The notes under the pieces are model-generated. The model did not search any database and was not told the DNA's origin. It saw nothing but the letters and a program-made list of their open reading frames with translations. Of a DNA stretch of 64,000 nt, positions 45,537-64,000 are shown piece after piece (the first letter of the stretch is position 1; each line of letters begins with the position of its first letter). Source of the stretch: Oscillospiraceae bacterium (GTDB lineage Bacteria > Bacillota > Clostridia > Oscillospirales > CAG-272). The position numbers and the translations under genes were made by a program. The stretch covers positions 23,578 to 87,577 of the forward strand of contig SVTS01000001.1 of the NCBI GenBank assembly GCA_015063645.1, given 5' to 3'.

Positions 45537-45599
45537 ATATATTCACCTTTACTGTTATTCTGCCGCCTGACGGCGGGCTTGCTCAATGGTACGTGCCGA

Positions 45600-46262
45600 T
45601 CAGATGGAATACATCAGGAATGCGGCGATCTTATCCGCAAGGATGGAATGACCGGCATTATTGGGATGGAGTCCATCGTTCATGTACTTTTCCTTGATAA
45701 TCGGCACGGCAGGCTGGAGACCGCTGGTTGCATACAGATCCAGAAGCGGCAGACCGTAGTATTCTGCTGTCTGACGGATCAGATTTACGTAATCCTTAAA
45801 CACAGCGGTACCGTCCGGCTTTCTGCCAGCCACGGTAGGATCGTCTTCCGCTCTGCGGTGGAGAGGCGTTGCAACAACAATCTTTGCTGACGGGTATTTT
45901 TCGATAAGTTTCAGGCAGAGAACGTGAAGAGAACCTGCAAAGGTATCCGCTGTTCTGTCGGAGAATTCGCCAAGCGGTGCATCACCGTGACCGAAGTCAT
46001 TGGTGCCGCCGAACACAACGACGATATCGGCATCCGGATCCATTTCATCCACACGGCCGATGAAATCTCTGTCCCAGCGGGGTTCTTTGGAAGGTTCTTT
46101 CTGGGGGGCGATTCTGGTACCGCCGATGCCGTAGTTGCGGCAGACCGCGCCGTAGCGGCTTGCAATCAGTCCGACAAAACCGAGCACATCGCGATCTGTT
46201 GCGGCATAGCCCTGCGTGATACTGTCACCGAGAAAATTGATTTTCAGTCCTTTGAGTTCCAT
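45600..46262 (-). CDS. SGNH/GDSL family hydrolase (esterase)
   Basis: 220 aa. INFLGDSITQGY, GIGGT, FGGTNDFGH, and NDGLHPN blocks. Confidence 0.8.
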   Translation of the reverse strand: MELKGLKINFLGDSITQGYAATDRDVLGFVGLIASRYGAVCRNYGIGGTRIAPQKEPSKEPRWDRDFIGRVDEMDPDADIVVVFGGTNDFGHGDAPLGEFSDRTADTFAGSLHVLCLKLIEKYPSAKIVVATPLHRRAEDDPTVAGRKPDGTAVFKDYVNLIRQTAEYYGLPLLDLYATSGLQPAVPIIKEKYMNDGLHPNNAGHSILADKIAAFLMYSI

Positions 46263-46294: not shown

Positions 46295-47905
46295 TTACTG
46301 CATCCAGCTGAGCTGGGAACGGGATCCGTCATAGACGGCTGTCCAATCGAATTCACGGCGTTCACCGTTTCCTTCAAAAATCTCCGGCAGGGAGGTTTTC
46401 TCAAAGTTAACAATGCCGTAATGCTTCTCGTTCTGATCGGCGATCTGATAAATCTGCCGGATACGTTTCATCTGTTCCGGTGTCAGAATACCGGGAGTTA
46501 CGGACGCAAGTGTTGTCACACCGGTAATGGCGCACATTTCAAGGAAGTCCAGATTAGCTTCGGGGGATACTTTTTCCGTGAATGCGGCGCAGTCGGGGTC
46601 GATCATGAAGAAATTACCGTTCTGCGGCAGGCGCATCATGGCGTTTACGCCGTTACGTACTGTATGCTCATAGCTTCGTCCGCTGGTATCACCGCCTACG
46701 CGCTGCATGGAGTGGATTCCGGCAGAAAGATGACCGATAACATTACACCCGATGATATCTGTATCGCCCGCGCCTGTCTGGATGGCTTTATACAGATTTT
46801 TGATGATCGTTGCCATGGTTTTTGTCTTGTCATAAAACTTCCGACCGCCGCCCATGAGATTGACGCCATGGGTTGATGCCAGAACGGAAGACTCAAAAAG
46901 GTCATGGGATGTAAAGTCATGCTTGATCAGTTCATATCCCCAGCCGCTGATGCGCGCGGCATCTGTCTGCACGCGTTCCAGTGTATACGGATGGGAGGGA
47001 TCCATGATCTGACCGCCGGCGTTCAGCCACAAGCGTGCTTCATCGGGAATTCTGCCAAGAGTCAGAAGCGGACGGAACCAGATACCTGCTTTTGCCCCTT
47101 TTTCGTGAATGGAAGCTGCTGTCTTTTCCATATCGCCGAAATGCTCGCCTGCATACCAGGGACCTCCGATATATGCGGGACTGCTGGTGGTGCGGTTAAA
47201 CTGCCAGCCATCATCGATGATCATATACGGACGGTTCTTTGTGTCTCCGACCATCTCCATAAGATAATCTGTTTCCACCATAACACTGTCATGGGTAATT
47301 CTTCCGTATGCCCAGTACCAGTTATTCACGCCGTACACGGGCGCCTTGGGCAGAACAGGATGCTCACACATTACGCCGGCAAAAGCGGCGGCAGCTTCAT
47401 ACGGTGTCTCACCTTCCGGGGCAATCCGCTCCACCACTTCGCATGCAACCAACCCGGACTGCAGATCCGTGCCGGAGTTTCCGTTCATCAGATTCAGAAA
47501 CAGTGTCAGTCCGTGGGTATCTGCCTGCCAGAATGCAAAACAGTCTGCGCCGGTTTTAACGCCGTAGCAGCCAAGCTGCTGTCCGCTTCTCAGATAGCAG
47601 AACCAGGGCAGACGGCGATGATTCATCATGGAACGCCATTCGATCGGACCGCCGGAACCGCATCTTTCCCATTCGTCGCCGCAAACGGCTTCCACGAAGG
47701 AAAGATCCGCCCGGAAACGGAGTTTCAGAAATTTCACCGGTGCGCCGGAGGGATACACGATCACTTTGGCGGAGTTCTTTTCCACACGGTACTCATACTG
47801 CACAGGGCATTCAGCCTGCAGATCTTCCTCAAAACGGTACGGGCTTTCATCCGTTGCGCCCATAACGCGATCCGGCTGTCTCAGCACGGTAGGAAACATT
47901 GCCAT
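46295..47905 (-). CDS. Clan GH-D (alpha-galactosidase/melibiase-like) glycosidase, cytoplasmic
   Basis: 536 aa. YMIIDDGWQ, GIWFRPL and YELIKHDF blocks parallel the GH27/GH36 catalytic barrel blocks. No signal peptide. Confidence 0.5.
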   Translation of the reverse strand: MAMFPTVLRQPDRVMGATDESPYRFEEDLQAECPVQYEYRVEKNSAKVIVYPSGAPVKFLKLRFRADLSFVEAVCGDEWERCGSGGPIEWRSMMNHRRLPWFCYLRSGQQLGCYGVKTGADCFAFWQADTHGLTLFLNLMNGNSGTDLQSGLVACEVVERIAPEGETPYEAAAAFAGVMCEHPVLPKAPVYGVNNWYWAYGRITHDSVMVETDYLMEMVGDTKNRPYMIIDDGWQFNRTTSSPAYIGGPWYAGEHFGDMEKTAASIHEKGAKAGIWFRPLLTLGRIPDEARLWLNAGGQIMDPSHPYTLERVQTDAARISGWGYELIKHDFTSHDLFESSVLASTHGVNLMGGGRKFYDKTKTMATIIKNLYKAIQTGAGDTDIIGCNVIGHLSAGIHSMQRVGGDTSGRSYEHTVRNGVNAMMRLPQNGNFFMIDPDCAAFTEKVSPEANLDFLEMCAITGVTTLASVTPGILTPEQMKRIRQIYQIADQNEKHYGIVNFEKTSLPEIFEGNGERREFDWTAVYDGSRSQLSWMQ

Positions 47906-48957: not shown

Positions 48958-50226
48958 TTATTTCCGATAGCTTGCGGGATTCTTTTCGAAGCGGTAAACA
49001 CCGTGGCAGTCAGCGGCTGCGGAACCTACGGACAGCCACCAAACACGTGTTTTCTTACTCAGATCGATCGTGCAGGAAGCAACGGACATATCTTCGGCTG
49101 TATCAGCAAGAACGATACCGTTGGGATCGATAATACGTGCGGGTTTCCAGCCTTCCCAGGGATACTTTTCATAGGTGGAACTGGAATTATTGCCGGCAAC
49201 GGCTACATAGACACCGCCGAAAATAGCATGAGCAGTAGACTTTTCGCGGGCATCACCTGCGGTGGGAACAAAGATGATCTCAGCACCCTTGCTGATCAGA
49301 TCCATTGCCGGCTCGGGGAAGTACTGGTCGAAGCAGGTCAGCGTACCGATGCGGCCGAAATCCAGATCAAATACGGGATGCTCATGTCCGGGCGTCAGAC
49401 CGTGCTCTATCTCTCCGACGGTCAAATGAGTCTTATGATACGTGCCGATCACGCTGCCGGTGCGGTCGATGATAGCGGAACTGTTATAGTACTCCGTGTC
49501 TTTTCTCTCCACGAAGTTATAGATGATATTTGTATGATGCTCGACAGCCTTGGCGCGTACCTGCATAATGATAGGACCGTCAACGGTTTCGGCACGTTCC
49601 GGATACTTCATAGGCAGACCGCGACCATACATGGATTCACTGAGAACAACGACATCGGGTTTGCACTCCGCACATTTATCGATAATTTCCAGAATACGTT
49701 CCACGTGCGCTTCTTTGGAATCTGCACGGGGGCGGAAATAACCGATGGCAATTGTTACGGGACGGGCTGCCGGTGCTTCACCGGGAGTAAGAACGGGGGC
49801 ATCCCACACAACATCGGCGATATAGCCTTTCAGGTACAGCTCAACTCTGAGTTTTACACCCTCTTCAGCCACGTCAACCTTATCGGTAAAGAGGTATCCG
49901 TCCTCTGTTTTTTCCGCATAGCGGGCATGATCACGGATGATCATATTACCGTTTTCTTTATAAACGGTATAGAGCACCCACAGATCCGTCTCCTCCTGTG
50001 CCGAATGGCACTTTACGGAGAAATCGTACCAGCCGGGTTTAATATCAATGACCGTCTCCCATTTACCGACAGCATACACATCAGGATTATTTACGCTGAT
50101 GGACAGAGTACCGTTCTCTTCACTTGCGGAAAATTCGGCATACTGCTTGAAGGAAGGAGTGTCGGTCGTCCAGGCAGAGGAACCGGGTGCCGGGAAAAGG
50201 TTCTTGGAATTACAGCAACAAGACAT
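48958..50226 (-). CDS. Carbon-nitrogen hydrolase (nitrilase superfamily) with about 150-aa N-terminal extra domain, paralog A
   Basis: 422 aa. Glu/Lys/Cys triad contexts VVVLSESMY, YHKTHLTVGE and GTLTCFDQYFPE. The N-terminal region (GWYDFSVKCH...) is not part of the canonical fold. Confidence 0.75.
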   Translation of the reverse strand: MSCCCNSKNLFPAPGSSAWTTDTPSFKQYAEFSASEENGTLSISVNNPDVYAVGKWETVIDIKPGWYDFSVKCHSAQEETDLWVLYTVYKENGNMIIRDHARYAEKTEDGYLFTDKVDVAEEGVKLRVELYLKGYIADVVWDAPVLTPGEAPAARPVTIAIGYFRPRADSKEAHVERILEIIDKCAECKPDVVVLSESMYGRGLPMKYPERAETVDGPIIMQVRAKAVEHHTNIIYNFVERKDTEYYNSSAIIDRTGSVIGTYHKTHLTVGEIEHGLTPGHEHPVFDLDFGRIGTLTCFDQYFPEPAMDLISKGAEIIFVPTAGDAREKSTAHAIFGGVYVAVAGNNSSSTYEKYPWEGWKPARIIDPNGIVLADTAEDMSVASCTIDLSKKTRVWWLSVGSAAADCHGVYRFEKNPASYRK

Positions 50227-50762: not shown

Positions 50763-51992
50763 TCAGTAGCTTTTCGGATTCTTTTCGAAACGGTAGACGG
50801 AACGTGCTTCAGTCATATTGGCACCTGTGGAGAGCCAATGGCGGCGTACCTTTCTTGAAAGATCGATCACGGCAAACACAACTGCTTCGTCCTCACCGCT
50901 TTGTGCAAGGATTTCTCCGTCAGGCGCGATGATACGGGACGGTGCCCAGCCGTACGGATTCTCCATATTCATACCGCCGACGCAGAAATAGAATCCGCCG
51001 TCCAGTGCGCGGGCGTGACATTTCTCTCTCGCGTCTCCGGCTGTAGGGATAAAGACGATCTCGGCTCCTTTCTTTGCAAGTTCATTTGCCGGTTCCGGGA
51101 AATACTGATCGTAACAGGTCAGAAGTCCGATTCGACCGAAATCCACGTCAAACACGGGATGCTCCCTGCCGGGTGTCATGCCCATTTCAAGTTCGGCCAC
51201 AGTCAGATGTGTTTTGAAATATCTGCCGGCAATTTTCCCTTCGCGGTCAATCAGCAGAGACGAATTATAGATCTCGCCCTCATATTTTTCGTGGAAGTTG
51301 TAGATCAGGTAGCTGTGATACTGCGCCGCTTTTTCGCACATAGCACGGATCATCACGCCGTCTTCTGCAGATTCCGCCTTTTCATGCAGAGGCAAATCGA
51401 CACCGCGTTCATACATGCCTTCGCTCATGAGGATTACATCGGGGTTATATGCACCGCATTTATCCACAATCCGGGTATACACTTCCCTGTTGGATTCCAG
51501 CGTAGCGGCACGGGGTTTCATATAACCGATTGCCACACGCACCTCTCGGGGCGCGGGTACTACGGCAGGTGTGATCACGGGAAGCTCCCAGATGACCTGA
51601 CCGGTATAGCCTTTAAACCACAATTCGGTTTTGCATTTGTGTGCATTTTCCGGCACTTCGATGCGGTCGGTAAAGCGCCAACCGTCCGGTGTTCTCTCCT
51701 CATGCTCCGCGTGATCCCGGATATCGGTTCTGTTGGAATCGGTGTAAATATCGTGGAGTACATATACGTCATGCATATCCGCATCTGTATGGCAGACGAC
51801 GGAGAAATCGTACCAGCCGGGAGCAAGCGTATATTCTGCTTCCCAACGACCTACGCCGTAATGGATGGGATCACTGACAGTAATGGAAAACGTACCGGCA
51901 GCGGAATCAAGAGTTCCGACGGCATAGTTTCTGCATTCAGGTGTAACAAAGCGCCATGCGCCGCTGTCTGCGGCAGGGATCAAATTTTTCAT
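50763..51992 (-). CDS. Carbon-nitrogen hydrolase (nitrilase superfamily) with N-terminal extra domain, paralog B
   Basis: 409 aa, colinear with paralog A. Triad contexts VILMSEGMY, YFKTHLTVAE and GLLTCYDQYFPE. N-terminal GWYDFSVVCH. Confidence 0.75.
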   Translation of the reverse strand: MKNLIPAADSGAWRFVTPECRNYAVGTLDSAAGTFSITVSDPIHYGVGRWEAEYTLAPGWYDFSVVCHTDADMHDVYVLHDIYTDSNRTDIRDHAEHEERTPDGWRFTDRIEVPENAHKCKTELWFKGYTGQVIWELPVITPAVVPAPREVRVAIGYMKPRAATLESNREVYTRIVDKCGAYNPDVILMSEGMYERGVDLPLHEKAESAEDGVMIRAMCEKAAQYHSYLIYNFHEKYEGEIYNSSLLIDREGKIAGRYFKTHLTVAELEMGMTPGREHPVFDVDFGRIGLLTCYDQYFPEPANELAKKGAEIVFIPTAGDAREKCHARALDGGFYFCVGGMNMENPYGWAPSRIIAPDGEILAQSGEDEAVVFAVIDLSRKVRRHWLSTGANMTEARSVYRFEKNPKSY

Positions 51993-52053: not shown

Positions 52054-53523
52054 TTACGGCATTGCTTTTACTTTTTCAACAAAGTCCTTGATGATCTTGT
52101 TGACGGAAGAGGTCAGGGAGGTCAGCGTGGAGACGAGATTATCGCCCTGGTTCTGGTATACTTCGTTGATGGGGTTATTGATCTCGAGTTCCCAGCACAC
52201 ACGACCTGCGTCAAATGCAACGGAGCGGAATACGTAATCCAGCATATCGGAGGATTCGTTATCGCGTGCGAGACGGGCTTTCAGAAGAACTTCCTTATAA
52301 GCGGGAAGCAGATTCCACTGAGAATCAAAGCTCAGAGCCTCAAGAAGGATACCGACGTTTTCATAGTGCTTTGCATCTGCGGAACGGGGCAGCGTTGCAA
52401 TCTCACCGATGGAGGAACGGGTCAGATACTGGGATTGTTCTTCGTTCAGTTTCGGTGTGGGCAGGATAGCGAAATCAACGTCCTTATCACGGTAGTCGGC
52501 AATATTGATCAGGTAAATCTCGCTGAAGAGGCAGTCGCCCTCGGCGAAATCGATACCGGTATCGCCTCCATGGATGGACTGACCGTTGGAGGAATAGATC
52601 GTGGGCTCGCTCTTATACAGTTCCAGAAGATCCTGCATATAGTTTATCAGGCTTTCATTCTTCAGAACTTCGAAAACAGGATAGCCTTCTTTATCTTTAG
52701 TAACCAGCGTGTAGCCGGCGCCCTGCGTCAGTGCACCGACATATGCCTTCAGAGAAGATGCGCCGGTACCGATACGGTCGGTCTTACCGTCACCGTCCAG
52801 ATCAGCTACTGCCTTGCGGCAGATCTCGAAGAACTTATCCTGCGTCCATTTTCCGTCCTTGACAAGCTGGTACACATCATCCTTCAGCTGGAGGTTCTTA
52901 TAAATATCCTTATTCATCATCCATGCGGAGGTACCGGAGATGTAGCTGAGAGAAAGGTTGCCGGCTATGGCGATCTGTTTGTCACCCACACGGAAAACAT
53001 CCGTTGCAGGAGGGTTCCACCATTCCTTATCCAGGGAGAGATGCGGAATTGAATCCATATCGGCAAGGTAATCCACGTTGCCGAAGGTGTTTACGCCGTA
53101 CAGATAGATAATATCATACGTTGCGTCGCCCGACTGCACGATACTGGCAACCATACCGGAGGGAGTTTTTTCTCCGGTCACCTTGATCTTTGCGTTGAAG
53201 CGGTTCTGGATCTTATCGTTGCGGGTATAGATCGCGTCGTTGATCAGATCGGAAGTCATTTCCTCGGCATCAAGCTGGGTCACGGTCCACGTGAGCCATT
53301 CTGTATTATGGTGCAGAATGTTCATGGTGAAACCGTCCATATTGACGTCGCCCAGTCCGTCTGTGAGTTCTGTTTCCGCTGCGGTGGTTTCCTCAGCTGT
53401 AGTGGTATCTGCAGCAGCTGAGGTATCGTCAGCAGGTGCGGGAGCGTCCGAGCATGCAGCCATGGACGGAAGAACCATCATTGCTGCCAGCAAAAGGGAT
53501 AGGATTGAGTTTCTGCGTTTCAT
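52054..53523 (-). CDS. Extracellular solute-binding lipoprotein (ABC-type), no adjacent permeases
   Basis: 489 aa. Signal peptide with lipobox SMAAC followed by an Ala/Thr/Glu-rich linker. AAGGAG RBS. Confidence 0.7.
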   Translation of the reverse strand: MKRRNSILSLLLAAMMVLPSMAACSDAPAPADDTSAAADTTTAEETTAAETELTDGLGDVNMDGFTMNILHHNTEWLTWTVTQLDAEEMTSDLINDAIYTRNDKIQNRFNAKIKVTGEKTPSGMVASIVQSGDATYDIIYLYGVNTFGNVDYLADMDSIPHLSLDKEWWNPPATDVFRVGDKQIAIAGNLSLSYISGTSAWMMNKDIYKNLQLKDDVYQLVKDGKWTQDKFFEICRKAVADLDGDGKTDRIGTGASSLKAYVGALTQGAGYTLVTKDKEGYPVFEVLKNESLINYMQDLLELYKSEPTIYSSNGQSIHGGDTGIDFAEGDCLFSEIYLINIADYRDKDVDFAILPTPKLNEEQSQYLTRSSIGEIATLPRSADAKHYENVGILLEALSFDSQWNLLPAYKEVLLKARLARDNESSDMLDYVFRSVAFDAGRVCWELEINNPINEVYQNQGDNLVSTLTSLTSSVNKIIKDFVEKVKAMP

Positions 53524-53683: not shown

Positions 53684-53714
53684 ATACATGTATACCACAT
53701 CATGGGAGGATAAC

Positions 53715-54830
53715 ATGGAACATCACAACGGTTACAGGCAGATTTATGAAGAATTACGCCGGAGAATTGAAAACGGTACATACAAGCCGGGAGATCTTCT
53801 GCCTCCGGAACGGCTTCTGCAGGAAGAATGGAATGTGGAGAGGACAACCATACGGCGCGCGCTGACTCTCCTTGTGAGGGACGGACTGATCCTGAAACGA
53901 GCAGGCATCGGTTCTGTGGTTACCTCATCCATGCCGTTTTCACACAGCGAGCAGGCAGTCCCCCAGCATGATAATTCCTCCCAGCTTCTCGGAATGGTTG
54001 TTGCCAACGGCGGAGGAAGATCCGCAAAAGCACTGCGCACCCACAATTTTATCGGTCCCGTCAGCAATGCGTTCTCATATCTCGGACTTGAGCAGGGATT
54101 TCAGGTTTTCACTACAGTCACCACCTATCCGACAGCGGACATAGGACTGCTGGATCTTCTGAAAGCGTGCCGGGGGATCATCTGGGCGGACAATGTTCCG
54201 CAGAAAATGCTGGAGGAAGCGAGAAGACGGCAAATCCCCTCCGTTCTGATGTCCCAGCGCCTGCGCGGATTCCGCAGTGTGGTCATTGACAACGAGGACG
54301 GAATGCGGCAGATTGTTGCTCATCTGCACGGACTCGGTCACCGGAATATCGCATACATCGGCGGTGACTCCATGTTTTACAACAGTATCGAGCGGCGCAA
54401 AGCGTTTATTGCGGCGATGAATGCCTGCGGACTGCCCGCGCGGGAAGAATTGATCAGCACGTTCGGCTGGTCTGAGCAGGAAGCAGCCAGAATGGCGGAA
54501 ATCATTCTGATGAAACATCCGGAGGTAACTGCTATCTGTGCGGCAAACGACAGAATGGCGGATGCAGTTATCCGCACTCTGCGGGCACGGGGAACACGGA
54601 TTCCTGAGGATATTTCCGTAACCGGCTTCGGTGCTGCGGACTTCTCTGCCCTGCTTCCCATTCCGCCTACAACAATAAAAACGGATTATATGCATTTCGC
54701 ACGCGAACTCTTCAATGCGCTTCTGCTTGAAATGGAAAATCCTTGGCAGAATCCGTCCACTGTTTTCGTGGAGACAGAATTGCTTCCCCGCGCATCTACC
54801 GGAAGCGTTTCTCCGTATGCACTGCGCTGA
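53715..54830 (+). CDS. GntR-type HTH fused to LacI/PBP1-type sugar-binding domain regulator
   Basis: Start at ATG 53715 with a GGGAGGA RBS. N-terminal GntR winged helix (YRQIYEELRRRIENGTYKPGDLLPPERLLQEEWNVERTTIRRAL). The C-terminal part resembles a periplasmic-binding-protein fold. Confidence 0.75.
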   Translation: MEHHNGYRQIYEELRRRIENGTYKPGDLLPPERLLQEEWNVERTTIRRALTLLVRDGLILKRAGIGSVVTSSMPFSHSEQAVPQHDNSSQLLGMVVANGGGRSAKALRTHNFIGPVSNAFSYLGLEQGFQVFTTVTTYPTADIGLLDLLKACRGIIWADNVPQKMLEEARRRQIPSVLMSQRLRGFRSVVIDNEDGMRQIVAHLHGLGHRNIAYIGGDSMFYNSIERRKAFIAAMNACGLPAREELISTFGWSEQEAARMAEIILMKHPEVTAICAANDRMADAVIRTLRARGTRIPEDISVTGFGAADFSALLPIPPTTIKTDYMHFARELFNALLLEMENPWQNPSTVFVETELLPRASTGSVSPYALR

Positions 54831-54944
54831 AGGAGGATTCGAATTGTGCACATTGTACAATTTATATAATTTTCCATATTTTTTTATTCAACCTATTTCC
54901 TTTTTTATTAAGATATGATACAATGAATAAAGTATTATCTGCAT

Positions 54945-57308
54945 TTGAATTCGGGGGTGGACTCTATAAAAAGAAAGTATTTATCCTGTTTATTTGTCAT
55001 CTGTTTTCTTCTTTGCATGCTTTGTGCGTGCGGCAGAGATTCAAAATCCGATCAGGCAAAGGACGGTACTGTCCGCGTGATGGTTGCAGTCGATGAAGGA
55101 ATCACTGTGATGCCGGATGCGGTTCTGGATCTGAATCCCGGTGAGGATGCTGTGTTCACGCTGCAATTCGCCGAGGGATTTGCCTTTGAGTCGGCAACGT
55201 GCGGTGAGTTCGATGCTGAAAGCGGCACACTGACGCTGCGCGCGGTGGAAAAAGCAACGCTTATCACGGTGAAATCTCAGACAGCTAAAATTCCTGAGGA
55301 AGCAGATATCCGTTTTCTGCTGAAAAGCACCAGCGATGATGACAAGGCTTCGGTTTCCGGGTACGGTTTTGTCCGGGACGGTGAGCAGATCCGCGTATAT
55401 GCCGGCAACAACCGGCGGAAGTTCGAGGGATGGTCCTTTGGATCAGACGGTGAAATTGTTTCCACCGATCGGAAATTCATTTTCAAAGTTGACCGTGACC
55501 TGGCAGAAGACGGTGTGTTCATTGTCCGTCCTCACTACAGCAGTGTAAGCAAGTTTTATTATGATGCCAACGGCGGCGTAATTGACAAAACCACTGACAA
55601 TGCCAAAGGCAACAATTATACCAGAGCCATTGTCAGCGGAAACCGGATAGAAATTACGCTGACTTCCTCGTATCTTGAGAAGATGAGTTGTGCCACGGCG
55701 TTCTGGAACGACGGAACGTTTTCCAGAGAAGGATATATATTAAAGGAATACAACACGTCTCCCGACGGCAAGGGGGAAGCATATCAGCCCGGTTCCAAGG
55801 TATATGCCTACACCGGTGATGACAGCGATTTCGTTCTCTACTGCATCTGGGAAAAAGTTTCGGAAGCGGATTTTACCTATGAACCGTATTCCATGCCACT
55901 TCCCTCCGGCGTCAAGAAACAGCATGCGCCTGACTGGCGTACCGACGGTGTGATCATAACGGAATACAAGGGAAATGCCGATACGCTGATTATTCCGGAA
56001 TATCTGGAAGGCAAGCCCGTCATTGCCATCCGCAGCGGTGCGGTGAGCAACAAGAAATTCACCACGCTCTATCTCTCCCGTACTCTGCAGGAAGTACAGG
56101 ACGGTGCGTTCAGCGGTTGTTCCTCTTTGAAAACGCTGTACTTCCCCGGCGGAATCTGGAATATGGGCAACGATGCATTTGACGCTGCCACCTACAAAAA
56201 CTGGACGAAGTTCTACGTATACGCCAGCATTGCGCCGCGGTATTCCACAGCGGAGGCGGGAGCGTTCGGCATCCGGCTCTCCAGAATTATTTCCACAGCA
56301 GACGAGAACCGCCTGGTGGCTATCGCCGGTTCTTCCATGTATCAGAGTCTCGGATCCGCCTATCTGGAGGCGCTTCTGGATTACGATTATGCGGTCATCA
56401 ATTTCGGAACGATCCGCATGACGCACGGTCCATTGTATATGGAAGCCATGCAGCATTATCTGGGAGACGGGGACATTGTTCTCTTCGCTCCGGAAAACAG
56501 CATTTACATGATGGGTGACAACGGACTGCGCACCAGCACGATCCGGGATATGGAATGCATGTATGAGCTGTTCCAGCATGTGGATATTTCCAAGTACACC
56601 AACGTATTCGGTGCGTTCCGGGATCAGAATCAGGAGAATTCCTACAAGCGCGCTCCCGGTTTTTATGACAATGTTGCCGGGTATGCGGGCATGAATGCCC
56701 ACGGTGACGATGTCAAGAAGGCAAAAGCCGGTTATGTGGGCACCACAGGCGTCACATACAATGAAGCATATTACATCCTGTTCAGCAGCCGGTACAAATC
56801 CACCGGCGAGGGAACGTGGAAAAATGCCAAGGATCAGCTGGACTACACGGACGACCGTTACTGGGTGGATATCAATACTTCCCCCTATATGGATATGATG
56901 AACCGTATCATCCGTACGGTACAGGCTGACGGCACCAAGGTCTTCTTCGGATTTGCTCCTTCGGATGAATACCGTACTTTTGATGTGGCGAAAAACAGAG
57001 ACTGGCTCGCCGCTTATGACAAGCTGATGAAGGAAACGTACTGTTTTGACGGTATTCTCGGTTCCTGCCACGAGTACATTTACAACCATCAGTACTTCTA
57101 TGACTGTGCTTATCACACGAACAATTACGGCAGAACCTGGCACACATACAATTTCTACACCGATCTCTGTCCGCTGCTCGGTCGTGAAATTCTGTATCAG
57201 AACGGCGAAGTCGGCACTTATTTCGAGGGTTGTCTCTTCGAAAAGGACGCGGACGGAAATCTGCTTACTTCCCCAAAATTCCCCGTGGAATTTTTAAGCG
57301 GCAAGTAA
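54945..57308 (+). CDS. Surface lipoprotein P1: B-repeat (Listeria/Bacteroides-repeat-like) + LRR-like segment + SGNH/DltD-like domain
   Basis: 787 aa. The start is uncertain (TTG 54945 or GTG 54957, no good RBS). Lipobox MLCAC. B-repeat-like GYILKEYNTSPDGKGEAY...LYCIWEK. Conserved GSS (AIAGSSMYQ) and DCAYHTNNYG motifs. Confidence 0.65.
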   Translation: MNSGVDSIKRKYLSCLFVICFLLCMLCACGRDSKSDQAKDGTVRVMVAVDEGITVMPDAVLDLNPGEDAVFTLQFAEGFAFESATCGEFDAESGTLTLRAVEKATLITVKSQTAKIPEEADIRFLLKSTSDDDKASVSGYGFVRDGEQIRVYAGNNRRKFEGWSFGSDGEIVSTDRKFIFKVDRDLAEDGVFIVRPHYSSVSKFYYDANGGVIDKTTDNAKGNNYTRAIVSGNRIEITLTSSYLEKMSCATAFWNDGTFSREGYILKEYNTSPDGKGEAYQPGSKVYAYTGDDSDFVLYCIWEKVSEADFTYEPYSMPLPSGVKKQHAPDWRTDGVIITEYKGNADTLIIPEYLEGKPVIAIRSGAVSNKKFTTLYLSRTLQEVQDGAFSGCSSLKTLYFPGGIWNMGNDAFDAATYKNWTKFYVYASIAPRYSTAEAGAFGIRLSRIISTADENRLVAIAGSSMYQSLGSAYLEALLDYDYAVINFGTIRMTHGPLYMEAMQHYLGDGDIVLFAPENSIYMMGDNGLRTSTIRDMECMYELFQHVDISKYTNVFGAFRDQNQENSYKRAPGFYDNVAGYAGMNAHGDDVKKAKAGYVGTTGVTYNEAYYILFSSRYKSTGEGTWKNAKDQLDYTDDRYWVDINTSPYMDMMNRIIRTVQADGTKVFFGFAPSDEYRTFDVAKNRDWLAAYDKLMKETYCFDGILGSCHEYIYNHQYFYDCAYHTNNYGRTWHTYNFYTDLCPLLGREILYQNGEVGTYFEGCLFEKDADGNLLTSPKFPVEFLSGK

Positions 57309-57363
57309 TCTGTTCCCTTTATATGCAAACGGGTAATCCGTAAAAAGAAAGAGGTAACCGTAC

Positions 57364-59724
57364 ATGAAAAAGCATCGTTTTCTTCCATTTATTGCGATCC
57401 TCGTCCTCTTGTGCATGACATTTTCAGCTTGCAATTCTACCTCTGATACAATCGGTTCTGACGTTCCCGGCGATACTGCTTCCGCAGAAACAGTCCGTGT
57501 TATGGTAAGTGCTTCCGAGGGTATTACGGTTCTGCCCCAGGCAGTACTGGACGTTGCTCCCGGAGAAGATGCAGTCTTTACGCTCCAGTTTGCCGAGAAT
57601 TATGTATTCACCAGCGCGGATGCCGGGGTTTATAATGCCGACAGCGGCACACTTACACTGGCTGATGTAACAAAGGCGACCATGATCACGGTTGTGGCGG
57701 AAAAACTGGAATTCGACACCAGTGTAAAAGTGGATTACGTACTGAAGAGTTCCGCTTCTGCAGATGTATCCTCTGTCCCCAGCGGTTCTCAGGTAAATCT
57801 CGGCACGGTGATCACGGTCACCGCAGGAGATCTGGCAAGACATTTCACAGGATGGTCTCTCGGCACAAGCGACGAGATTGTTTCTACGGACCGTTCCTAC
57901 ACGTTCCGTGTTACGCCTGATATTGTCAAGGATTCCGCGCTGCACATCAAGCCCAACTACACCTCCATGAACGTATTCAGCTACAACGCCAACGGCGGCA
58001 CAATCAACAAGAATACGGTCAACGCCAAGGGTAACAAGCTGTCCACCACAACGATTGCGGGAGACAAGCTCACTGTCAGCCTTGCGACCAATTATCTGGC
58101 GAAGATCAGCTGTGCTACCGCCTTTTGGAATGACGGTACGTTTACCCGCGACGGTTATGTTCTGAAAGAGTACAACACCAAAGCGGACGGAAGCGGCACT
58201 ACGGTTCTTCCCGGCGACAAGTTCTATCAGGTTAATCCCGATGGCGGCGAATATATTCTGTACTGCATCTGGGAAAAAGCCGACACCGCCGGTTTTACCT
58301 TTGACAACTATACCATGGCGCTGCCGAAAGGCATCAAGGCATCCAATGCCCCGGACTGGAAGACAGACGGTGTAATTATCACCGGCTATATCGGATCGGC
58401 TGAAACGCTGGTTATTCCCGAATACATCAACGGAAAGCCTGTTATCGCCATTCAGAAGGGTGCCATCAAGAATCAGAAATTTACAACGCTGTATCTGTCC
58501 CGCACTCTGCAGGAAGTACAGGATGGTGCGATTGTCGGCTGTTCTTCCATGAAGCGTCTCTACTTCCCTTCCGGCATCTGGTCCATGAAAGATGAGGCTT
58601 TTGATGACGGCACATATTCCAAGTGGAGAGAGTTTTATGTATACGCCAGCATCGCCCCCCGCTACTCCAATGCAGAAGCGGGAGCTTACGGTCTGAAGCT
58701 TTCCCGCATTCTCGCCTCCCAGGATCGGAACCGCATTATTGCTATTGCAGGTTCCTCCACGCTTCAGGGTCTCGGAACGGAGTATCTGGAAGCACTGCTG
58801 GATCATGAGTATGTGGTTGTCAACTTCGGCACGACCCGTACGACCCACGGTTCCCTCTATCTGGAAGCCATGCAGAACTTCGCGCACAAGAACGATATCG
58901 TTATCTTTGCACCGGAGAACAGTATCTACATGATGGGTGACACCGCTCTGTACTGGAAGACCATCCGCGACATGGAGTCCCTGTATCAGCTGTTCCGCTA
59001 TGTGGATATTTCCGAATACAGTGATGTTTTTGATGCATTCTGTGAGCAGAATCAGGAATATGCCTACAAACGCGGTCCCCGCAGCTACGAGGACAGTGTC
59101 AATGTCGGCGGCATGAACATGTACGGCGACGATGTGAAAAAGAACAAGAACGGTTATGTCAACTCTTCTTCAACAAAATTCATTGAAGCATACAACCTGA
59201 CGTTCAACAACCGCTTCAAATCCGTCAATGAAGGACAGTGGGAGAACGCCGGTTTCCAGAACGATTACACGCATGACAGCTACTGGGTCAGCATTGATCA
59301 GTCCCCCTATGTGGATCAGATCAACCGCGTGGCGGATCTTGTCAAGAAGACCGGTGCCAAGGTGTACTTCGGTTTCGCGCCGTCCGATGCCAAGGCTGTT
59401 ATTGAGGAAGCGAAGAGCACAACCTGGCTGGATGCCTATGACAAGCTGATCAAAGAAGCATTCACCTTCGACGGTATTGTGGGTTCCTGCAAGAATTACA
59501 TTTATGCACATGAGTATTTCTTTGACTGTGCATTCCACACCAACAACTACGGCAGAAGCTGGCGTACTTACTATCTCTACACCGATCTCTGTGATATTCT
59601 CGGCAAGGAAGTGAAGTACAAGAACGGTGATCTTGGCACGGATTTCGATCAGTGTCTCTTTGAAAAGGGATCCGACGGCAAGGTTCTCACCGAACCCAAG
59701 TACAAAGTGGATTTTGTTAACTGA
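57364..59724 (+). CDS. Surface lipoprotein P2, tandem paralog of P1
   Basis: 786 aa with a GAAAGAGG RBS and lipobox TFSAC. Colinear with P1 (for example TLYLSRTLQEVQDGA and FYVYASIAPRYS are identical in both). AIAGSSTLQ and DCAFHTNNYG motifs. Confidence 0.75.
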   Translation: MKKHRFLPFIAILVLLCMTFSACNSTSDTIGSDVPGDTASAETVRVMVSASEGITVLPQAVLDVAPGEDAVFTLQFAENYVFTSADAGVYNADSGTLTLADVTKATMITVVAEKLEFDTSVKVDYVLKSSASADVSSVPSGSQVNLGTVITVTAGDLARHFTGWSLGTSDEIVSTDRSYTFRVTPDIVKDSALHIKPNYTSMNVFSYNANGGTINKNTVNAKGNKLSTTTIAGDKLTVSLATNYLAKISCATAFWNDGTFTRDGYVLKEYNTKADGSGTTVLPGDKFYQVNPDGGEYILYCIWEKADTAGFTFDNYTMALPKGIKASNAPDWKTDGVIITGYIGSAETLVIPEYINGKPVIAIQKGAIKNQKFTTLYLSRTLQEVQDGAIVGCSSMKRLYFPSGIWSMKDEAFDDGTYSKWREFYVYASIAPRYSNAEAGAYGLKLSRILASQDRNRIIAIAGSSTLQGLGTEYLEALLDHEYVVVNFGTTRTTHGSLYLEAMQNFAHKNDIVIFAPENSIYMMGDTALYWKTIRDMESLYQLFRYVDISEYSDVFDAFCEQNQEYAYKRGPRSYEDSVNVGGMNMYGDDVKKNKNGYVNSSSTKFIEAYNLTFNNRFKSVNEGQWENAGFQNDYTHDSYWVSIDQSPYVDQINRVADLVKKTGAKVYFGFAPSDAKAVIEEAKSTTWLDAYDKLIKEAFTFDGIVGSCKNYIYAHEYFFDCAFHTNNYGRSWRTYYLYTDLCDILGKEVKYKNGDLGTDFDQCLFEKGSDGKVLTEPKYKVDFVN

Positions 59725-59744
59725 TTTGAGGGTATAAACTGCCT

Positions 59745-60020
59745 ATGACTGTACTGCTTACTGTATTACTCATTGCCGTTTCTGCGGCGATCATCGTGCT
59801 GCACGCTCTGTCTGTTTTCGGACAGAGCCGTACGGCACGCATCTCCACGTATTTTTCCCTCGCCATGCACATCATTCTGTTCACGGTGATGCTGCTGATG
59901 GCGCTTCCCATGGATGCGGCTGTACTCATTTTCCTGTCATCCGTACTCATTTATTCCTCGCTGCACGCTTTGCGGTATTTCCGCAAAGAAAGCGGGAAAA
60001 AGGAGGGTGAGGAAGCATGA
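59745..60020 (+). CDS. Small 3-TM membrane protein, translationally coupled to MBOAT gene
   Basis: 91 aa with three hydrophobic helices and a charged C-terminal tail. Its stop overlaps the MBOAT start (ATGA at 60017..60020). Confidence 0.5.
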   Translation: MTVLLTVLLIAVSAAIIVLHALSVFGQSRTARISTYFSLAMHIILFTVMLLMALPMDAAVLIFLSSVLIYSSLHALRYFRKESGKKEGEEA

Positions 60021-61474
60021 CATTCAACTCCTGGGAATTTCTGATTTTCTATCCTCTTGTGGCGCTGCTCTATTTTGTACTTCCCAAAAAACTCGTCTGG
60101 CCGATGCTGCTGGCGGCAAGCTACTACTTCTACATGTGCTATCAGCCGGATCTGGTTTTTCTGATTGTCGGAACAACGCTGATCTCCTGGATCGCCTCCC
60201 ATATTATCACCAGAAGTGCAAATCAGAAAGTCAGAAAAATCTGGCTTGCTCTCACGCTGATTGTATGTCTCGGCGTACTGTTCTTCTACAAGTATTTCAA
60301 TTTCCTCGCCGGCAGTGTGGTGGGCATTATTGAAATGTTCGGCGGAACGCCGTCCCCCATCGCACTGAATCTGATTCTGCCGGTGGGTATTTCGTTCTAC
60401 ACCTTCCAGACGCTTTCTTATGTAATCGATGTATACCGCGGCGACGTACAGCCGGAGAAGAACTTCTTCTTCTATGCACTGTTCGTGTCCTTCTTCCCGC
60501 AGTTGGTTGCAGGTCCGATTGAACGTCCCGATAATCTGATTCCTCAGCTCCGCGAGCGTCATGCGTGGGATAATGACAATGCGGTCAAGGGTGCCAAGCA
60601 CATGATCGTCGGTTTCTTCAAGAAAATCATTGTCGCCGACGGCATTTCGATCTATGTGGATGCGGTTTACAACAATACGGAAAACGCCTCCGCTTTTGCC
60701 GTTATTATCGCAACGATGCTCTTTGCGGTACAGATTTACTGCGATTTCTCCGGCTATACGGACATCGCCATCGGCTGTGCGCGCATCATGGGCATCCGTC
60801 TGATGCAGAACTTTGACCATCCTTACATGGCTACGTCCATCAAGGAATTCTGGTCCAGATGGCACATCTCCCTGTCCTCCTGGTTCAAGGATTATCTGTA
60901 CTTTCCTCTGGGCGGAAGCCGCTGTGCTCTTCCCCGTGCGCTTATGAATCTGATGATCGTGTTCCTCGTCTCCGGTCTGTGGCACGGTGCCGCATGGACC
61001 TATGTGATCTGGGGCGGCATTCACGGCATTTATCAGATCATCGGCAGACTTACATGGAAAAAGCGCAATGCTCTTCTGGCAAAGCGCGGTCTCAGCGAGA
61101 ATTCGCCTGTAATTGCGTGGATCAGACGCTTTAACGTATTCCTGCTTGTTTGCTTTGCATGGATGTTCTTCCGCGCGAACAGCACGGCGGATGCGTTCTA
61201 TCTGGTCGGCAGACTGTTTACCGGCTGGGATGTCGGTCTCGGCGGCGCACTTGCCGCCATGGAGCTTACGCCCGTTGCTGTTCTGACGGTTCTCGTTTCC
61301 ATTCTTACGCTGATCATCATTGACAGACTTCTGACTTATGATGATGCACCGGACGGTTCCGGCATGCTCGTGCAGAACGGTGCATTCATGTACTATGTCT
61401 GGGTGATCCTGTTCTTCTGGGGACTGCTCCTCTCGAAGAATCTGACCAGCACATTTATCTATTTCCAGTTCTGA
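60017..61474 (+). CDS. MBOAT family membrane-bound O-acyltransferase (AlgI/DltB/PatA-like)
   Basis: 485 aa. Typical N-terminus MTFNSWEFLIFYPL, FYTFQTLSYVIDVYRG, and the invariant-His block VSGLWHGAAW (His323 codon at 60983..60985). Confidence 0.9.
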   Translation: MTFNSWEFLIFYPLVALLYFVLPKKLVWPMLLAASYYFYMCYQPDLVFLIVGTTLISWIASHIITRSANQKVRKIWLALTLIVCLGVLFFYKYFNFLAGSVVGIIEMFGGTPSPIALNLILPVGISFYTFQTLSYVIDVYRGDVQPEKNFFFYALFVSFFPQLVAGPIERPDNLIPQLRERHAWDNDNAVKGAKHMIVGFFKKIIVADGISIYVDAVYNNTENASAFAVIIATMLFAVQIYCDFSGYTDIAIGCARIMGIRLMQNFDHPYMATSIKEFWSRWHISLSSWFKDYLYFPLGGSRCALPRALMNLMIVFLVSGLWHGAAWTYVIWGGIHGIYQIIGRLTWKKRNALLAKRGLSENSPVIAWIRRFNVFLLVCFAWMFFRANSTADAFYLVGRLFTGWDVGLGGALAAMELTPVAVLTVLVSILTLIIIDRLLTYDDAPDGSGMLVQNGAFMYYVWVILFFWGLLLSKNLTSTFIYFQF

Positions 61475-61484
61475 GGAGGGCCGC

Positions 61485-62960
61485 ATGAAAAAGAATATTA
61501 TCCGAATCATCGCGGCACTTCTTGTGCTGATTATGCCGCTGGGCATTCTTGTGCTTGCGGCTTACGCGACGCCGTCCGTCTACGATGCCACGTTTGTCGG
61601 AGCGCTGGATGAAAAATTTGACAGACTCACTTCCCTTGAGGGAAAGAAGATCGTCATAGTTGGCGGTTCTTCCGCCGCATTCGGTATCGACAGCGCCATG
61701 ATTGAGAAATACACAGGGTTGCCTGTGGTGAATTTCGGTCTGTATGCCGCGCTGGGTACAAAGATCATGATGGATATCTCACGTCCCGGCATCGGTGCGG
61801 GTGACGTTGTCGTTCTTGCACCTGAAATGGATCCGCAGACTTTATCGCTGTATTTCAACTCCGATTCTGCACTGACGGCGATGGACGGCAATTTCTCCAT
61901 GGCACGCTACATCCGCGGAGACAACAAGCTGTCACTGCTCGGTGCGACCTGGCGATTCGGCGCTGAAAAGCTGCAGTATCTGCTCACGGATACCCGTCCC
62001 GCTGCCAGCGGCGCCTATGATTCATCTTACTTCAATGAATACGGTGATCTGACGTATCCCCGTGCGGAAAACGTAATGGGCATGTATTATGATCCAAACA
62101 CGCCAATCGATCTGCGTGCCGAGACGGTGGATGCAGAATTCATTGACTATGTGAATGAGTACATCCGTTACTGCGAAAAGCAGGGTGCCACGGTCTACTT
62201 CGGATTCTGTCCGATGAATGAGATGGCACTTACTGAGGAAACCACGGCTGAAAGCATCTCTGCATTCGAGAAATTCCTTGCTGATTCGCTCACATGTCCG
62301 ATACTCGGGTCTGCATCCGACCACATCTACACGGCAGAATACTTTTACGACAGCAATTTCCACTGCAATGATGTCGGTGTGAAGCTGCACACCGTTGCGC
62401 TGGTCAAGGAACTTCTCCTTGCTCTGGGAATTCCTGCATTTGTCAAAGAAGAGATTCCGGAAGCCCCTGCTCTGCCGGACATCGACATCCGCTACTTCGG
62501 CGATGCAGATGAGAATGCAGTGTATTTTACCTATGAGATGACGGACTTCGGTTACCGGATCACCGGGCTGACCGAACTGGGCAAACAGCAGAAAACGCTG
62601 ACAATGCCCATCTGTTATGAGGGTTACCGAGTTTCCCTGCTGGGCGCCAATGCGCTGTCGGGCGGTATATGCGAGAAGTTCATTATTCCTGCGGCATTTG
62701 AGCAGTTTATTTCCGAGGTCACATCTTCCATGATGACCATCGAAAATGACGCGTTTATCGGTGCCTCTGCGCTGAAAGAGCTTTGGATTTACAACCGCCA
62801 CGAAGCTACGGTTATGCCTCCGGTTTCCTTTGAAGGCGTACACAAGGATTTCGTTGTTCATGTTCCTGACGGATCCAGTTACGGCGAAGGGTATTTCTGG
62901 GGTGAAAGAAAGCTGAACGGTGTGAATCTTGTCTTTATCCAGGATATCATAATGGAATAA
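61485..62960 (+). CDS. N-terminally membrane-anchored SGNH/DltD-like protein P3 with C-terminal LRR-like segment
   Basis: 491 aa with a GAGGAGGG RBS. One N-terminal TM helix. VIVGGSSAAFG and DSNFHCNDVG motifs align with the C-terminal domains of P1/P2. The C-terminal part is LRR-like (IENDAFIGASALKELWIYN). Confidence 0.7.
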   Translation: MKKNIIRIIAALLVLIMPLGILVLAAYATPSVYDATFVGALDEKFDRLTSLEGKKIVIVGGSSAAFGIDSAMIEKYTGLPVVNFGLYAALGTKIMMDISRPGIGAGDVVVLAPEMDPQTLSLYFNSDSALTAMDGNFSMARYIRGDNKLSLLGATWRFGAEKLQYLLTDTRPAASGAYDSSYFNEYGDLTYPRAENVMGMYYDPNTPIDLRAETVDAEFIDYVNEYIRYCEKQGATVYFGFCPMNEMALTEETTAESISAFEKFLADSLTCPILGSASDHIYTAEYFYDSNFHCNDVGVKLHTVALVKELLLALGIPAFVKEEIPEAPALPDIDIRYFGDADENAVYFTYEMTDFGYRITGLTELGKQQKTLTMPICYEGYRVSLLGANALSGGICEKFIIPAAFEQFISEVTSSMMTIENDAFIGASALKELWIYNRHEATVMPPVSFEGVHKDFVVHVPDGSSYGEGYFWGERKLNGVNLVFIQDIIME

Positions 62961-62965
62961 AAAAG

Positions 62966-62992
62966 CGTGGATCCCTTTCCCGGGGATCCACG
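62966..62992. terminator. Hairpin terminator between convergent genes
   Basis: cgtggatccc / gggatccacg stem followed by TTATTTTA. Confidence 0.6.
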
Positions 62993-62997
62993 TTATT

Positions 62998-64000
62998 TTA
63001 TGCCTCTTCTTTGGGAATATAAACGGCAACGCCGTTGATCTCTACGCCTTCGCTTACAGGGATCATCAGATACTTCCGTCCGTCGATCACGCGGGTTTCT
63101 ACCATATAGCTGGCTTCTGGCGCGACGGAGATTTTCACCTGGGGCATGGTCAGGTTGAATTTTTTCACATCTACGATATTGCCCGGATTCAGCGGTGCGC
63201 CTGCACCGAATGCTTCGGTACATTTCTCCTGGAATTTCTCGATCCGCTCCGCAGGCACTTCCAGCGATCGAAGCATATCGCCCACTTCCCTGCCGCTCAA
63301 TTCCAGCGGATCAGGTTCTTTGGCTTCCTTATGCTGTTCAAGACGCTCACGGATCTGTTCGTGAACAGTCTGCACTACCTCAAAGCTGCAGGATTCTTCC
63401 AGCGTTTCGGTCAGGATACTCTCAAACGTATCCCGCTGAATACCGGCGGACATGGGGGCATCGGTGTGGAAGAAGGATTCAATAAAGCTCTGATGAACAT
63501 CCGCGGTATTCCGGGAGTAATACAGGGCGCTGTAGATATTGGCACGGCGTCCGTCAAATGCGGGAAACATGAATCCCATCTCCGGTGCGCTGACACCCTG
63601 TGCGGATGTACAGTTCTGGAATGTTTTTTCACCTGCTACATAGCCGAGTTCTGTTTTCCCCTCATGCACCGGACAGATGCTGCAGAGAAGATAGGTGAAC
63701 ATCGTATCGGACTGACGATCCGTTTCCTCTCCGTCTTTCGATCTCCATGGAACATCATATGTATCCGCCGCAAGAAGGATCAGATAATTGGTATCTTTCA
63801 GATCCACGCCTGCGATGATACGGCGGAAGAAATCCTTGCGGGCCTCCTCATCCGCACAAAGCGTGGAACGGAGTTTTGTCAGAAGAGCATGCTCTTCGCT
63901 CGTTTCCACCTGTACGGTGGAGAATGGGATATCAAGCAGAGACCGCCCGATACCGCCGGACAGGGATTTTTTGAAAAGAGCCAGGAAACGCTCCACTTCA
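62998..64000 (-). CDS. Hypothetical cytoplasmic protein, 5' end probably outside window
   Basis: The ORF runs to the window edge: the frame is still open upstream of the GTG at 63996. No family recognised. Confidence 0.5.
   Translation of the reverse strand, partial: EVERFLALFKKSLSGGIGRSLLDIPFSTVQVETSEEHALLTKLRSTLCADEEARKDFFRRIIAGVDLKDTNYLILLAADTYDVPWRSKDGEETDRQSDTMFTYLLCSICPVHEGKTELGYVAGEKTFQNCTSAQGVSAPEMGFMFPAFDGRRANIYSALYYSRNTADVHQSFIESFFHTDAPMSAGIQRDTFESILTETLEESCSFEVVQTVHEQIRERLEQHKEAKEPDPLELSGREVGDMLRSLEVPAERIEKFQEKCTEAFGAGAPLNPGNIVDVKKFNLTMPQVKISVAPEASYMVETRVIDGRKYLMIPVSEGVEINGVAVYIPKEEA

Follow-up and report, generated by a model that had tools for sequence, protein, structure and literature searches.

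A conserved MBOAT cassette with predicted SGNH-fold partners, very probably an envelope acylation system, in uncultured Clostridia

The five-gene locus and its MBOAT

In the 64,000-nucleotide (nt) stretch of contig SVTS01000001.1 analysed here (the window), from an Oscillospiraceae bacterium, five genes lie tightly spaced on the plus strand at 54945-62960; coordinates throughout are positions in this window. They encode two lipoproteins, P1 (54945..57308, 787 amino acids (aa)) and P2 (57364..59724, 786 aa), the 91-aa product of a small open reading frame (ORF) with three hydrophobic segments (59745..60020), a 485-aa MBOAT acyltransferase (60017..61474) and the transmembrane (TM)-anchored protein P3 (61485..62960, 491 aa). 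The gaps between them are 55, 20, -4 (an ATGA overlap) and 10 nt. Behind P3 stands a GC-rich hairpin with a 13-bp stem and T-rich tails on both strands (62964..62994), likely a bidirectional terminator common to the operon and to the convergent DUF4317 gene downstream (62998-63996, minus strand). The original prediction, made from the letters of this stretch, had described five co-directional genes with short gaps followed by a terminator, and we find the genes at the coordinates and lengths it gave, with the hairpin in the place of its terminator. We consider it highly probable that the locus encodes an MBOAT-SGNH system for envelope acylation with a mechanism of the PatA/AlgI type, the group transferred being most likely acetyl. 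The cassette is a conserved four-component unit, of which one component is duplicated in the window.

The 485-aa protein matches the Pfam MBOAT model (PF03062) with E=6.9e-27 (95 bits, cutoff 27) and MBOAT_2 with 33.2 bits (cutoff 25). Its invariant catalytic His323 (60983-60985) lies within GLWHGAAW, which bears out the earlier identification of an MBOAT from this histidine, and the WHGxxW motif is present in 71 of 77 orthologues. The closest solved MBOAT structure by sequence is DltB (E=5e-27), but the protein scores 162.4 bits against the DltB equivalog model TIGR04091, far below the cutoff of 375. In both NCBIfam and PDB matches the DltB homology stops at about aa 378-385, and two more hydrophobic segments, placed by hydropathy only, follow this DltB-like core from about aa 406 and aa 454. 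At the very C-terminus stands the hexapeptide FIYFQF (61454-61471), which fits FxYxxF and places Tyr482 at 61460-61462. Orthologues end in the same hexapeptide in 75 of 77 cases and in FIYFAF in the other two (2/77); FIYFQF also closes the distant MBOATs of loci L085 and L086.

FxYxxF at an MBOAT C-terminus is an acyl-shuttle motif (PMC12148441). PatA auto-acetylates the tyrosine of this motif from acetyl-CoA, and PatB then takes the acetyl-tyrosine as donor (PMC12148441). DltB is without the extra C-terminal helices and is supplied with the motif in trans by the microprotein DltX, whereas MBOATs with a fused FxYxxF require neither DltX nor DltC (PMC12148441). By its sequence, assignment of the MBOAT described here to the acyl-CoA-using PatA/AlgI type is strongly supported. 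Because it carries its own FIYFQF shuttle motif, the donor is likely an acyl-CoA, probably acetyl-CoA. The annotated flanks of the operon within the window hold no AMP-ligase or carrier-protein genes, in agreement with the earlier statement that DltA and DltC are absent, and their lack would be explained by the fused motif, which makes DltA, DltC and DltX unnecessary.

The product of the 91-aa ORF combines three hydrophobic segments with a charged tail at the C-terminus; the stop codon of the ORF and the MBOAT start share the 4 nt ATGA, an arrangement typical of translational coupling. In 76 of 77 loci this position, between a P1-like gene and the MBOAT, is occupied by an ORF, typically with three TM segments and a charged tail; the one counted in L058, for which no TM segment is predicted, is probably spurious. 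The sequence of this microprotein is poorly conserved among loci. We considered it as a DltX analogue and rejected the idea, as it has no FxYxxF, spans the membrane three times and adjoins an MBOAT with a motif of its own. In a distant cassette, L085 (6392-10191), the P1-like gene directly overlaps the MBOAT start with no small ORF between them; a gene for a 158-aa multi-TM protein lies ahead of the P1-like gene, and rhamnosidase and GH3 genes flank the locus.

The partner proteins and their common domain

P1 and P2 are tandem paralogues, 55% identical over their full length and alike in architecture. Their lipoboxes, called by pattern and with no dedicated predictor, read LCAC in P1 (...CMLCAC29, with Cys29 at 55029) and FSAC in P2 (...MTFSAC23, with Cys23). 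P3 begins with an N-terminal hydrophobic helix that serves as its TM anchor (aa 2-28). These anchors, together with the three hydrophobic segments of the 91-aa protein, are those originally proposed, and they recur in the wider family: a lipobox is found in 44 of 46 P1-like homologues and a TM helix in 80 of 82 P3-like proteins.

In P1, three beta-rich modules (about aa 43-304) and a BspA-type leucine-rich repeat (LRR) module (about aa 310-426) precede a C-terminal domain of predicted SGNH fold (aa 430-750, nt 56232-57194, plus strand), in which the conserved residues are Ser463 (56331), Asn486/Gly488, Pro516-Glu517, Asp720 and His724 (57114). The putative catalytic domain of P2 (nt 58654-59619, plus strand) keeps Ser464 (58753), Asp721 and His725 (59536) intact. 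In P3 the predicted SGNH-fold domain (aa 28-320, nt 61566-62444, plus strand) comes directly after the anchor, with Ser62 (61668), Asn83/Gly85, Pro113-Glu114, Asp289 (62349) and His293 (62361), and a BspA-type LRR module forms the C-terminus (about aa 340-491).

With LRR_5 (PF13306, cutoff 27.7), P1 scores 28.1 bits as a whole protein and 31.9 as a fragment, and it is the only one of the three proteins above the cutoff; P2, at 19.3 bits, is sub-threshold. A profile match links the C-terminus of P3 to BspA-like LRR structures (4fs7, 2.4e-5), and the LRR module of the P1 model matches TpLRR and 4gt6 in a structure search. B-repeats gave sub-threshold matches only, to Flg_new (PF09479; E=0.022 and 0.041) and Flg_new_2 (PF18998; E=0.027), although some P1 homologues carry precomputed matches to PF09479 or PF18998. 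The original prediction of LRR-like and B-repeat modules on the lipoproteins thus holds for the LRR of P1, but the P2 LRR and every B-repeat match stay below threshold. Among the models that it had named, MBOAT and, for P1, LRR_5 were matched, but DltD and DHHW were not.

A domain of about 300 aa is common to P1, P2 and P3. Residues 433-746 of P1 align with residues 33-315 of P3 at 23% identity (BLASTP E=4e-17). Across 182 homologues of both families, the following positions (P3 numbering) are invariant or nearly so: G61-S62-S63, N83-F-G85, D107, P113-E114, G187-D188, G234, P243, Y286, D289, H293, N295 and G298. The GSS and D-x3-H-x-N-x2-G motifs from which such a domain had been proposed are therefore exact as quoted and fall among the most conserved parts of the family. 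P3-type and P1-type domains differ consistently at a few positions near the motifs (F66/Q, L86/T, A88/R, N245/D and N291/A), substitutions in keeping with donors or acceptors that differ between the two types.

Sequence searches tie the domain to no described family. With the full proteins, neither Pfam nor NCBIfam gives a match for it; 22 isolated domains searched against Pfam at E up to 10 returned one Lipase_GDSL_2 match (1.4e-3) and DUF459 (0.13), and no DltD. Against all PDB sequences, phmmer and profile searches found nothing for the domain, the LRR matches being confined to the P3 C-terminus. The 182-sequence alignment compared by hhalign with four PDB DltD sequences, which had been pulled from PDB alignments with a bait sequence, gave E=0.14 and a probability of 0.4%, and the comparison with the two canonical GDSL esterases of the window gave E=0.21; neither is significant. 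The local pairings in these runs, APE with SPQ or GxND, CPMN with PPVN, and His with His, are consistent with the fold but are not counted as evidence for it. Two memberships were rejected on this basis. The domain does not belong to the DltD family (PF04914), having no model match and no significant profile-profile match, nor to AlgX/AlgJ/DHHW, as no ALGX or DHHW Pfam model matches and the serine lies about 230-260 residues upstream of the Asp/His pair.

Structure models are more telling. The AlphaFold model of P3 (predicted local distance difference test (pLDDT) 92.9, predicted template modelling score (pTM) 0.88) has top Foldseek matches that are all SGNH proteins: rhamnogalacturonan acetylesterase (RGAE) 3c1u at 6.9e-5, 1deo, YxiM 2o14, DltD (7dxm, 6o93) at 2.2e-3, Iah1 3mil and PatB 8tlb at E=0.12. 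An independent full-length P1 model (pLDDT 90.1) first matches BspA-type LRR proteins, for its LRR module; its putative catalytic domain matches all four DltD structures, then RGAE, YxiM and TesA. In the P3 model, block I (G61-S62-S63) comes directly after strand 56-60 and block II (N83-F-G85) at the end of strand 81-85, D289 and H293 lie in the loop preceding the last helix, and the motif order is canonical (Ser, Gly, Asp/His). An SGNH fold for the common domain is thus strongly supported by the models. The partners had been called SGNH/DltD-like, a description that stands at the level of fold but not of family, and the general claim of an extracytoplasmic O-acyl transfer module with an MBOAT is well supported by the SGNH-fold partners and their conserved Ser and Asp/His.

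Several observations pull the other way. The fold-match statistics are marginal, the best being 6.9e-5 for P3 and none falling below 1e-3 for P1, and TM-scores are low, as the query models are multi-domain. No sequence profile links the domain to an SGNH family, and the putative catalytic triad is judged from the secondary-structure positions of Ser, His and Asp. Block III is without the canonical Asn (GxND): P113-E114 (A-P-E) follows strand 108-112, a position held in DltD by S-P-Q. Block V is D289-x-x-x-H293, with the Asp at His-4, and not DxxH (His-3); this D-x3-H is then followed by N-x-x-G, as in Lipase_GDSL_2 proteins. Both deviations are common to the P1 and P3 families, which suggests that the two carry out the same chemistry.

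Conservation of the cassette and routes of acyl transfer

A Ruminococcaceae/Oscillospiraceae metagenome-assembled genome (MAG) encodes a hypothetical protein identical to P3, and P3 and P1 each have hundreds of homologues without annotation. A domain-profile search of 1.84 billion proteins returned 5,140 representatives of 50% identity clusters at E≤1e-3 (3,540 at E≤1e-10), and the best 150 of these 5,140 matches, all clearly in-family, include no bridge to a named family. Scanning species-representative genomes gave 295 matches, nearly all of them in uncultured Clostridia of the gut or rumen. In about 77 species-level loci from these 295 genomes the order P1-like gene, small ORF, MBOAT, P3-like gene is essentially constant, with gaps of 4 nt to 20 nt and translational coupling across differing genomic contexts; distant members of the P1 family (about 25% identity) also adjoin an MBOAT. 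The full cassette is present as well in L082, a Candidatus Gastranaerophilales MAG of the Melainabacteria lineage, and in L018, a bin labelled Coriobacteriaceae, occurrences that could reflect horizontal transfer or mis-binning.

The two partner types behave differently in copy number. P3 is single-copy in all loci, while P1-like genes number one in most genomes, two here, in L051 (4210-8228) and in L087 (8001-13735), three in L079 (2058-8177) and five in L038 (63-8086), identified by domain-model matches as tandem arrays upstream of one MBOAT. These arrays suggest repeated diversification of the lipoprotein partner. P1 and P2 are a local duplication of one partner type, and the family norm is one P3-type protein with at least one P1-type. 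In several genomes the types are fused: a TM anchor, a P3-type domain, LRR/B-repeat modules and a second domain copy form one protein of about 980-1050 aa (L086 at 3387-6320, P0250, P0253, P0254, P0257, P0259 and P0272). The L086 operon consists of the small ORF, the MBOAT and the fusion protein, and some second domains of the fusion proteins have an Asp-His spacing of D-x-H. Since P3-type and P1-type are joined in this way, we read them as complementary and not as the alternatives originally proposed, when P1, P2 and P3 had been taken for three alternative acceptor-side transferases.

Common neighbours of the cassette are radical-SAM YgiQ-like, PcrA, HAD, YlmH, PrsA and RsmF genes. No glycan-synthesis cluster lies near it in the retrieved loci, where neighbours are housekeeping genes or, in the window, unrelated sugar-utilisation genes. 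Because the cassette so often sits among housekeeping genes without such a cluster, its setting points to a core envelope polymer as acceptor, for example peptidoglycan, teichoic acid or a secondary wall polysaccharide. The cassette of many genomes (18 loci in the neighbour survey) has beside it genes for small lipoproteins, about 160-180 aa long and without a Pfam match, just upstream of the P1-like gene and/or just downstream of P3 (examples are L087:7476-7955, L087:16918-17418 and L001:5420-5899); such lipoproteins are absent from the window.

The architecture has precedents in the alginate, cellulose and peptidoglycan O-acetylation (OAP) systems. In both alginate (AlgI/J/F/X) and cellulose (WssF/G/H/I) acetylation, an accessory protein accompanies two proteins of SGNH type, one membrane-associated and one free (PMC4148444), and the peptidoglycan system PatA/PatB/Ape1 joins an MBOAT to two SGNH proteins (PMC12148441). 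The statement that one transferase per system is the norm was therefore too strong. The likeness to the Pseudomonas systems extends to the single MBOAT, to the TM-anchored SGNH-type AlgJ, comparable with P3, to AlgX, a second SGNH-type protein with a carbohydrate-binding module (CBM) where P1 and P2 have LRR and beta modules, and to the small accessory AlgF, comparable with the 91-aa protein; AlgI-type MBOATs also end in FxYxxF (PMC12148441). However, AlgJ and AlgX are circularly permuted, with DxH before Ser (H-S-G-Y order; PMC4148444), whereas the order here is canonical. ALGX and DHHW Pfam models match nothing here, AlgF is a soluble periplasmic protein and not a 3-TM microprotein, and the Alg and Wss genes lie inside polysaccharide synthesis operons, unlike the cassette. 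The hosts here are Clostridia of Gram-positive lineage, and the second partner is a lipoprotein.

PatA/PatB/Ape1 resembles the cassette in its MBOAT, with a C-terminal FxYxxF tyrosine shuttle that in PatA uses acetyl-CoA, in an SGNH transferase that has an N-terminal TM anchor and its motifs in canonical order, and in a further SGNH protein of the operon to which a binding module is appended (PMC12148441). Yet PatB and Ape1 have no detectable sequence similarity to P1, P2 or P3, and the PatB fold match noted above is weak. Both partner types here are of one family with common atypical blocks III and V, an extra 3-TM microprotein is present, and LRR and B-repeat modules stand in place of CBM35.

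The partners in PatA1/PatB1 and CcsH/CcsI belong to the AlgX/AlgJ-like class. These systems, which acetylate the secondary cell-wall polysaccharide of Bacillus and clostridial cellulose, respectively, are cited in PMC12148441 as pairs of an MBOAT and an SGNH-type protein. They resemble our locus as Firmicutes MBOATs with an extracytoplasmic SGNH-type partner that acetylates wall-associated polysaccharides. It is by that description, as simple pairs, that they are set apart from the cassette, which has two partner types of a family without annotation and a microprotein.

For the route of the acyl group, we tentatively favour a relay from MBOAT Tyr482 to P3 Ser62, on to P1/P2 and finally to a wall polymer, a scheme resembling the one put forward for AlgJ and AlgX; we regard it as quite possible though somewhat short of probable. 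The acyl group of a cytoplasmic acyl-CoA, probably acetyl-CoA, would be passed by His323 of the MBOAT to Tyr482 on the outer side of the membrane; there P3 would dock on the MBOAT and Ser62 receive the group. Because its putative catalytic domain starts right after the TM helix, P3 should be held at the membrane surface beside the MBOAT, like PatB, DltD and AlgJ, and it is thus the likely first acceptor from Tyr482. P1 and P2, whose putative catalytic domain would sit at the distal end of a stalk of about 400 aa made of adhesin-like beta and LRR modules, may then take the group from P3 and place it on wall polymer farther from the membrane. The duplicated P1 and P2 might serve different acceptor sites or polymers, and the 3-TM microprotein may be a subunit that helps the MBOAT complex to assemble or dock. 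We favour a relay because the two types co-occur obligatorily, are fused in some genomes and have the atypical active-site blocks in common, and because P1-like copy number varies while P3 stays single. Against it, the P3-to-P1 step draws only on architecture and on the analogy with AlgJ/AlgX, whose own order is unproven; P1 and P2 could instead be acylated by the MBOAT tyrosine with no P3 in between, or be esterases. A specific catalytic role for the microprotein is unlikely, given how poorly its sequence is conserved.

The first of these doubts leads to a set of transferases working in parallel, in which P1, P2 and P3 would each dock on the MBOAT, take the acyl group from Tyr482 and serve an acceptor of their own. 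The putative catalytic residues are kept in all three, and variable P1-like copy number between genomes is what diversification of acceptor specificity would produce. We nevertheless think this unlikely, for the near-obligatory co-occurrence and the fusion of the two types suggest interdependence, and some 400 residues separate the putative catalytic domain of P1 from its lipid anchor, with the shuttle tyrosine lying at the membrane surface. The second doubt would make P3 the sole transferase and P1 and P2 de-O-acylases for wall remodelling or turnover. Such a division has a model in the Gram-negative OAP operon, where the PatA MBOAT and the PatB SGNH transferase are accompanied by Ape1, an SGNH esterase with a carbohydrate-binding module (PMC12148441). 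P1 and P2 likewise bear appended LRR and beta modules, their putative catalytic domain is distal to the lipid anchor, and several positions near the motifs differ in a family-specific way between P1 and P3. But P3 has an LRR module too, so that appended binding modules do not discriminate, and where PatB has a noncanonical oxyanion hole and Ape1 a typical SGNH fold (PMC12148441), P1 and P3 agree in block V and in a block III that has P-E and lacks Asn. To fuse writer and eraser in one polypeptide would, moreover, set up a futile cycle. Removal of acyl groups by P1 and P2 is on balance somewhat unlikely, if worth keeping in mind.

Two further explanations fare much worse. Aminoacylation of the Dlt kind, for example D-alanylation with ligase and carrier protein encoded elsewhere in the genome, is suggested by DltB as the best NCBIfam and PDB sequence match of the MBOAT, by DltD as the best or a near-best fold match of the partner domain, by similar local motifs in DltD (GSS(E), [AS]P[EQ], P-x-N, YF..D..H) and by a membrane microprotein encoded beside the MBOAT. 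We judge it very improbable. The MBOAT stays far below the DltB equivalog cutoff and has extra C-terminal helices and a fused FxYxxF that are absent from DltB (PMC12148441). The Pfam DltD model gives no match and hhalign no significant one, and DltX is a single-pass protein with FxYxxF whereas the microprotein here has three TM segments and no such motif. No dltA, dltC or dltX, and no AMP-ligase or PP-binding gene, is found in the flanks examined, which are those of the window, L001, L003 and L085-L087. Chance adjacency of secreted dietary-polysaccharide esterases to an unrelated MBOAT would suit a window rich in plant-polysaccharide esterase genes (two GDSL, one CE15 glucuronyl esterase) and the rhamnosidases and GH3 that flank L085. 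It is effectively refuted by a gene order that is fixed in about 77 loci of differing context, with short gaps and translational coupling, and by a TM-anchored P3 directly beside the MBOAT, and it is scarcely credible.

Returning to the relay, it is tempting to imagine a bolder form of it, although we hold this to be improbable: P3 and the microprotein could be an obligatory hub feeding one to five (1-5) stalked lipoprotein transferases that act beyond the cell's own classical wall glycans. Targets might then include proteins of the surface or S-layer, or glycans from host or diet to which the LRR and B-repeat modules bind. Such a programmable acyl relay to distant acceptors would be without counterpart in the Alg, Pat or Dlt systems.

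In pathogens, MBOAT-SGNH systems determine resistance to lysozyme and antimicrobial peptides, the control of autolysins and recognition by the immune system; the tyrosine-shuttle mechanism that they share was worked out only in 2023-2025. We found no published description of the cassette, within incomplete literature coverage; the original prediction had not recognised the architecture either, but an MBOAT with two SGNH partners has precedents, in Alg and OAP. What appears new is a partner domain of no described family, SGNH at the predicted fold level only and closest in shape to DltD, together with two partner types that are paralogous to each other, a conserved 3-TM microprotein as accessory and a host range that takes in a large set of uncultured Clostridia. 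The cassette would extend the tyrosine-shuttle paradigm to uncultured gut and rumen Clostridia, in 295 species-level genomes from one scan, with a domain that makes up about 5,000 clusters at 50% identity without Pfam, NCBIfam or structural annotation. To a specialist the system may in principle be unsurprising, yet the family is widespread and wholly without annotation. Defining it would re-annotate thousands of 'hypothetical' or 'leucine-rich repeat' gut-metagenome proteins as probable envelope acyltransferases. It also offers a natural system in which to ask what makes a second SGNH partner necessary in some MBOAT machines, a question open for alginate.

Promoter region and neighbouring genes

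The TTG start of P1 was assigned mechanically, and a GTG at 54957, behind a GGGGG run, is an alternative. Upstream of P1, a gene for a GntR helix-turn-helix regulator with a sugar-binding domain (53688-54830, plus strand) ends 114 nt before the operon. In this gap we read a candidate promoter region directly from the sequence (54853..54870, plus strand), with TATAAT at 54865-54870; it has no good -35 element and was not listed by the consensus scan, so the evidence for it is weak. The perfect palindrome TTGTACAA (54853-54860) stands directly 5' of the TATAAT. This palindrome is a candidate operator, through which the operon could be under sugar-responsive control.

Beyond the regulator, a divergent gene for a sugar-binding ABC lipoprotein (52054-53523, minus strand) is adjoined by two paralogous carbon-nitrogen hydrolase genes (48958-50226 and 50763-51992, minus strand), each product of which has an N-terminal extension of about 150 aa without annotation. 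Farther off lies a cluster of carbohydrate-esterase genes (43692-46262) composed of a CE15-like glucuronyl esterase (43692-44750, plus strand) and two canonical cytoplasmic-type GDSL/SGNH esterases (44919-45536 and 45600-46262, minus strand). These esterases are unrelated by sequence to the domain of P1, P2 and P3. Next to them, a 536-aa ORF (46295-47905, minus strand) has no Pfam match at E≤1e-3.

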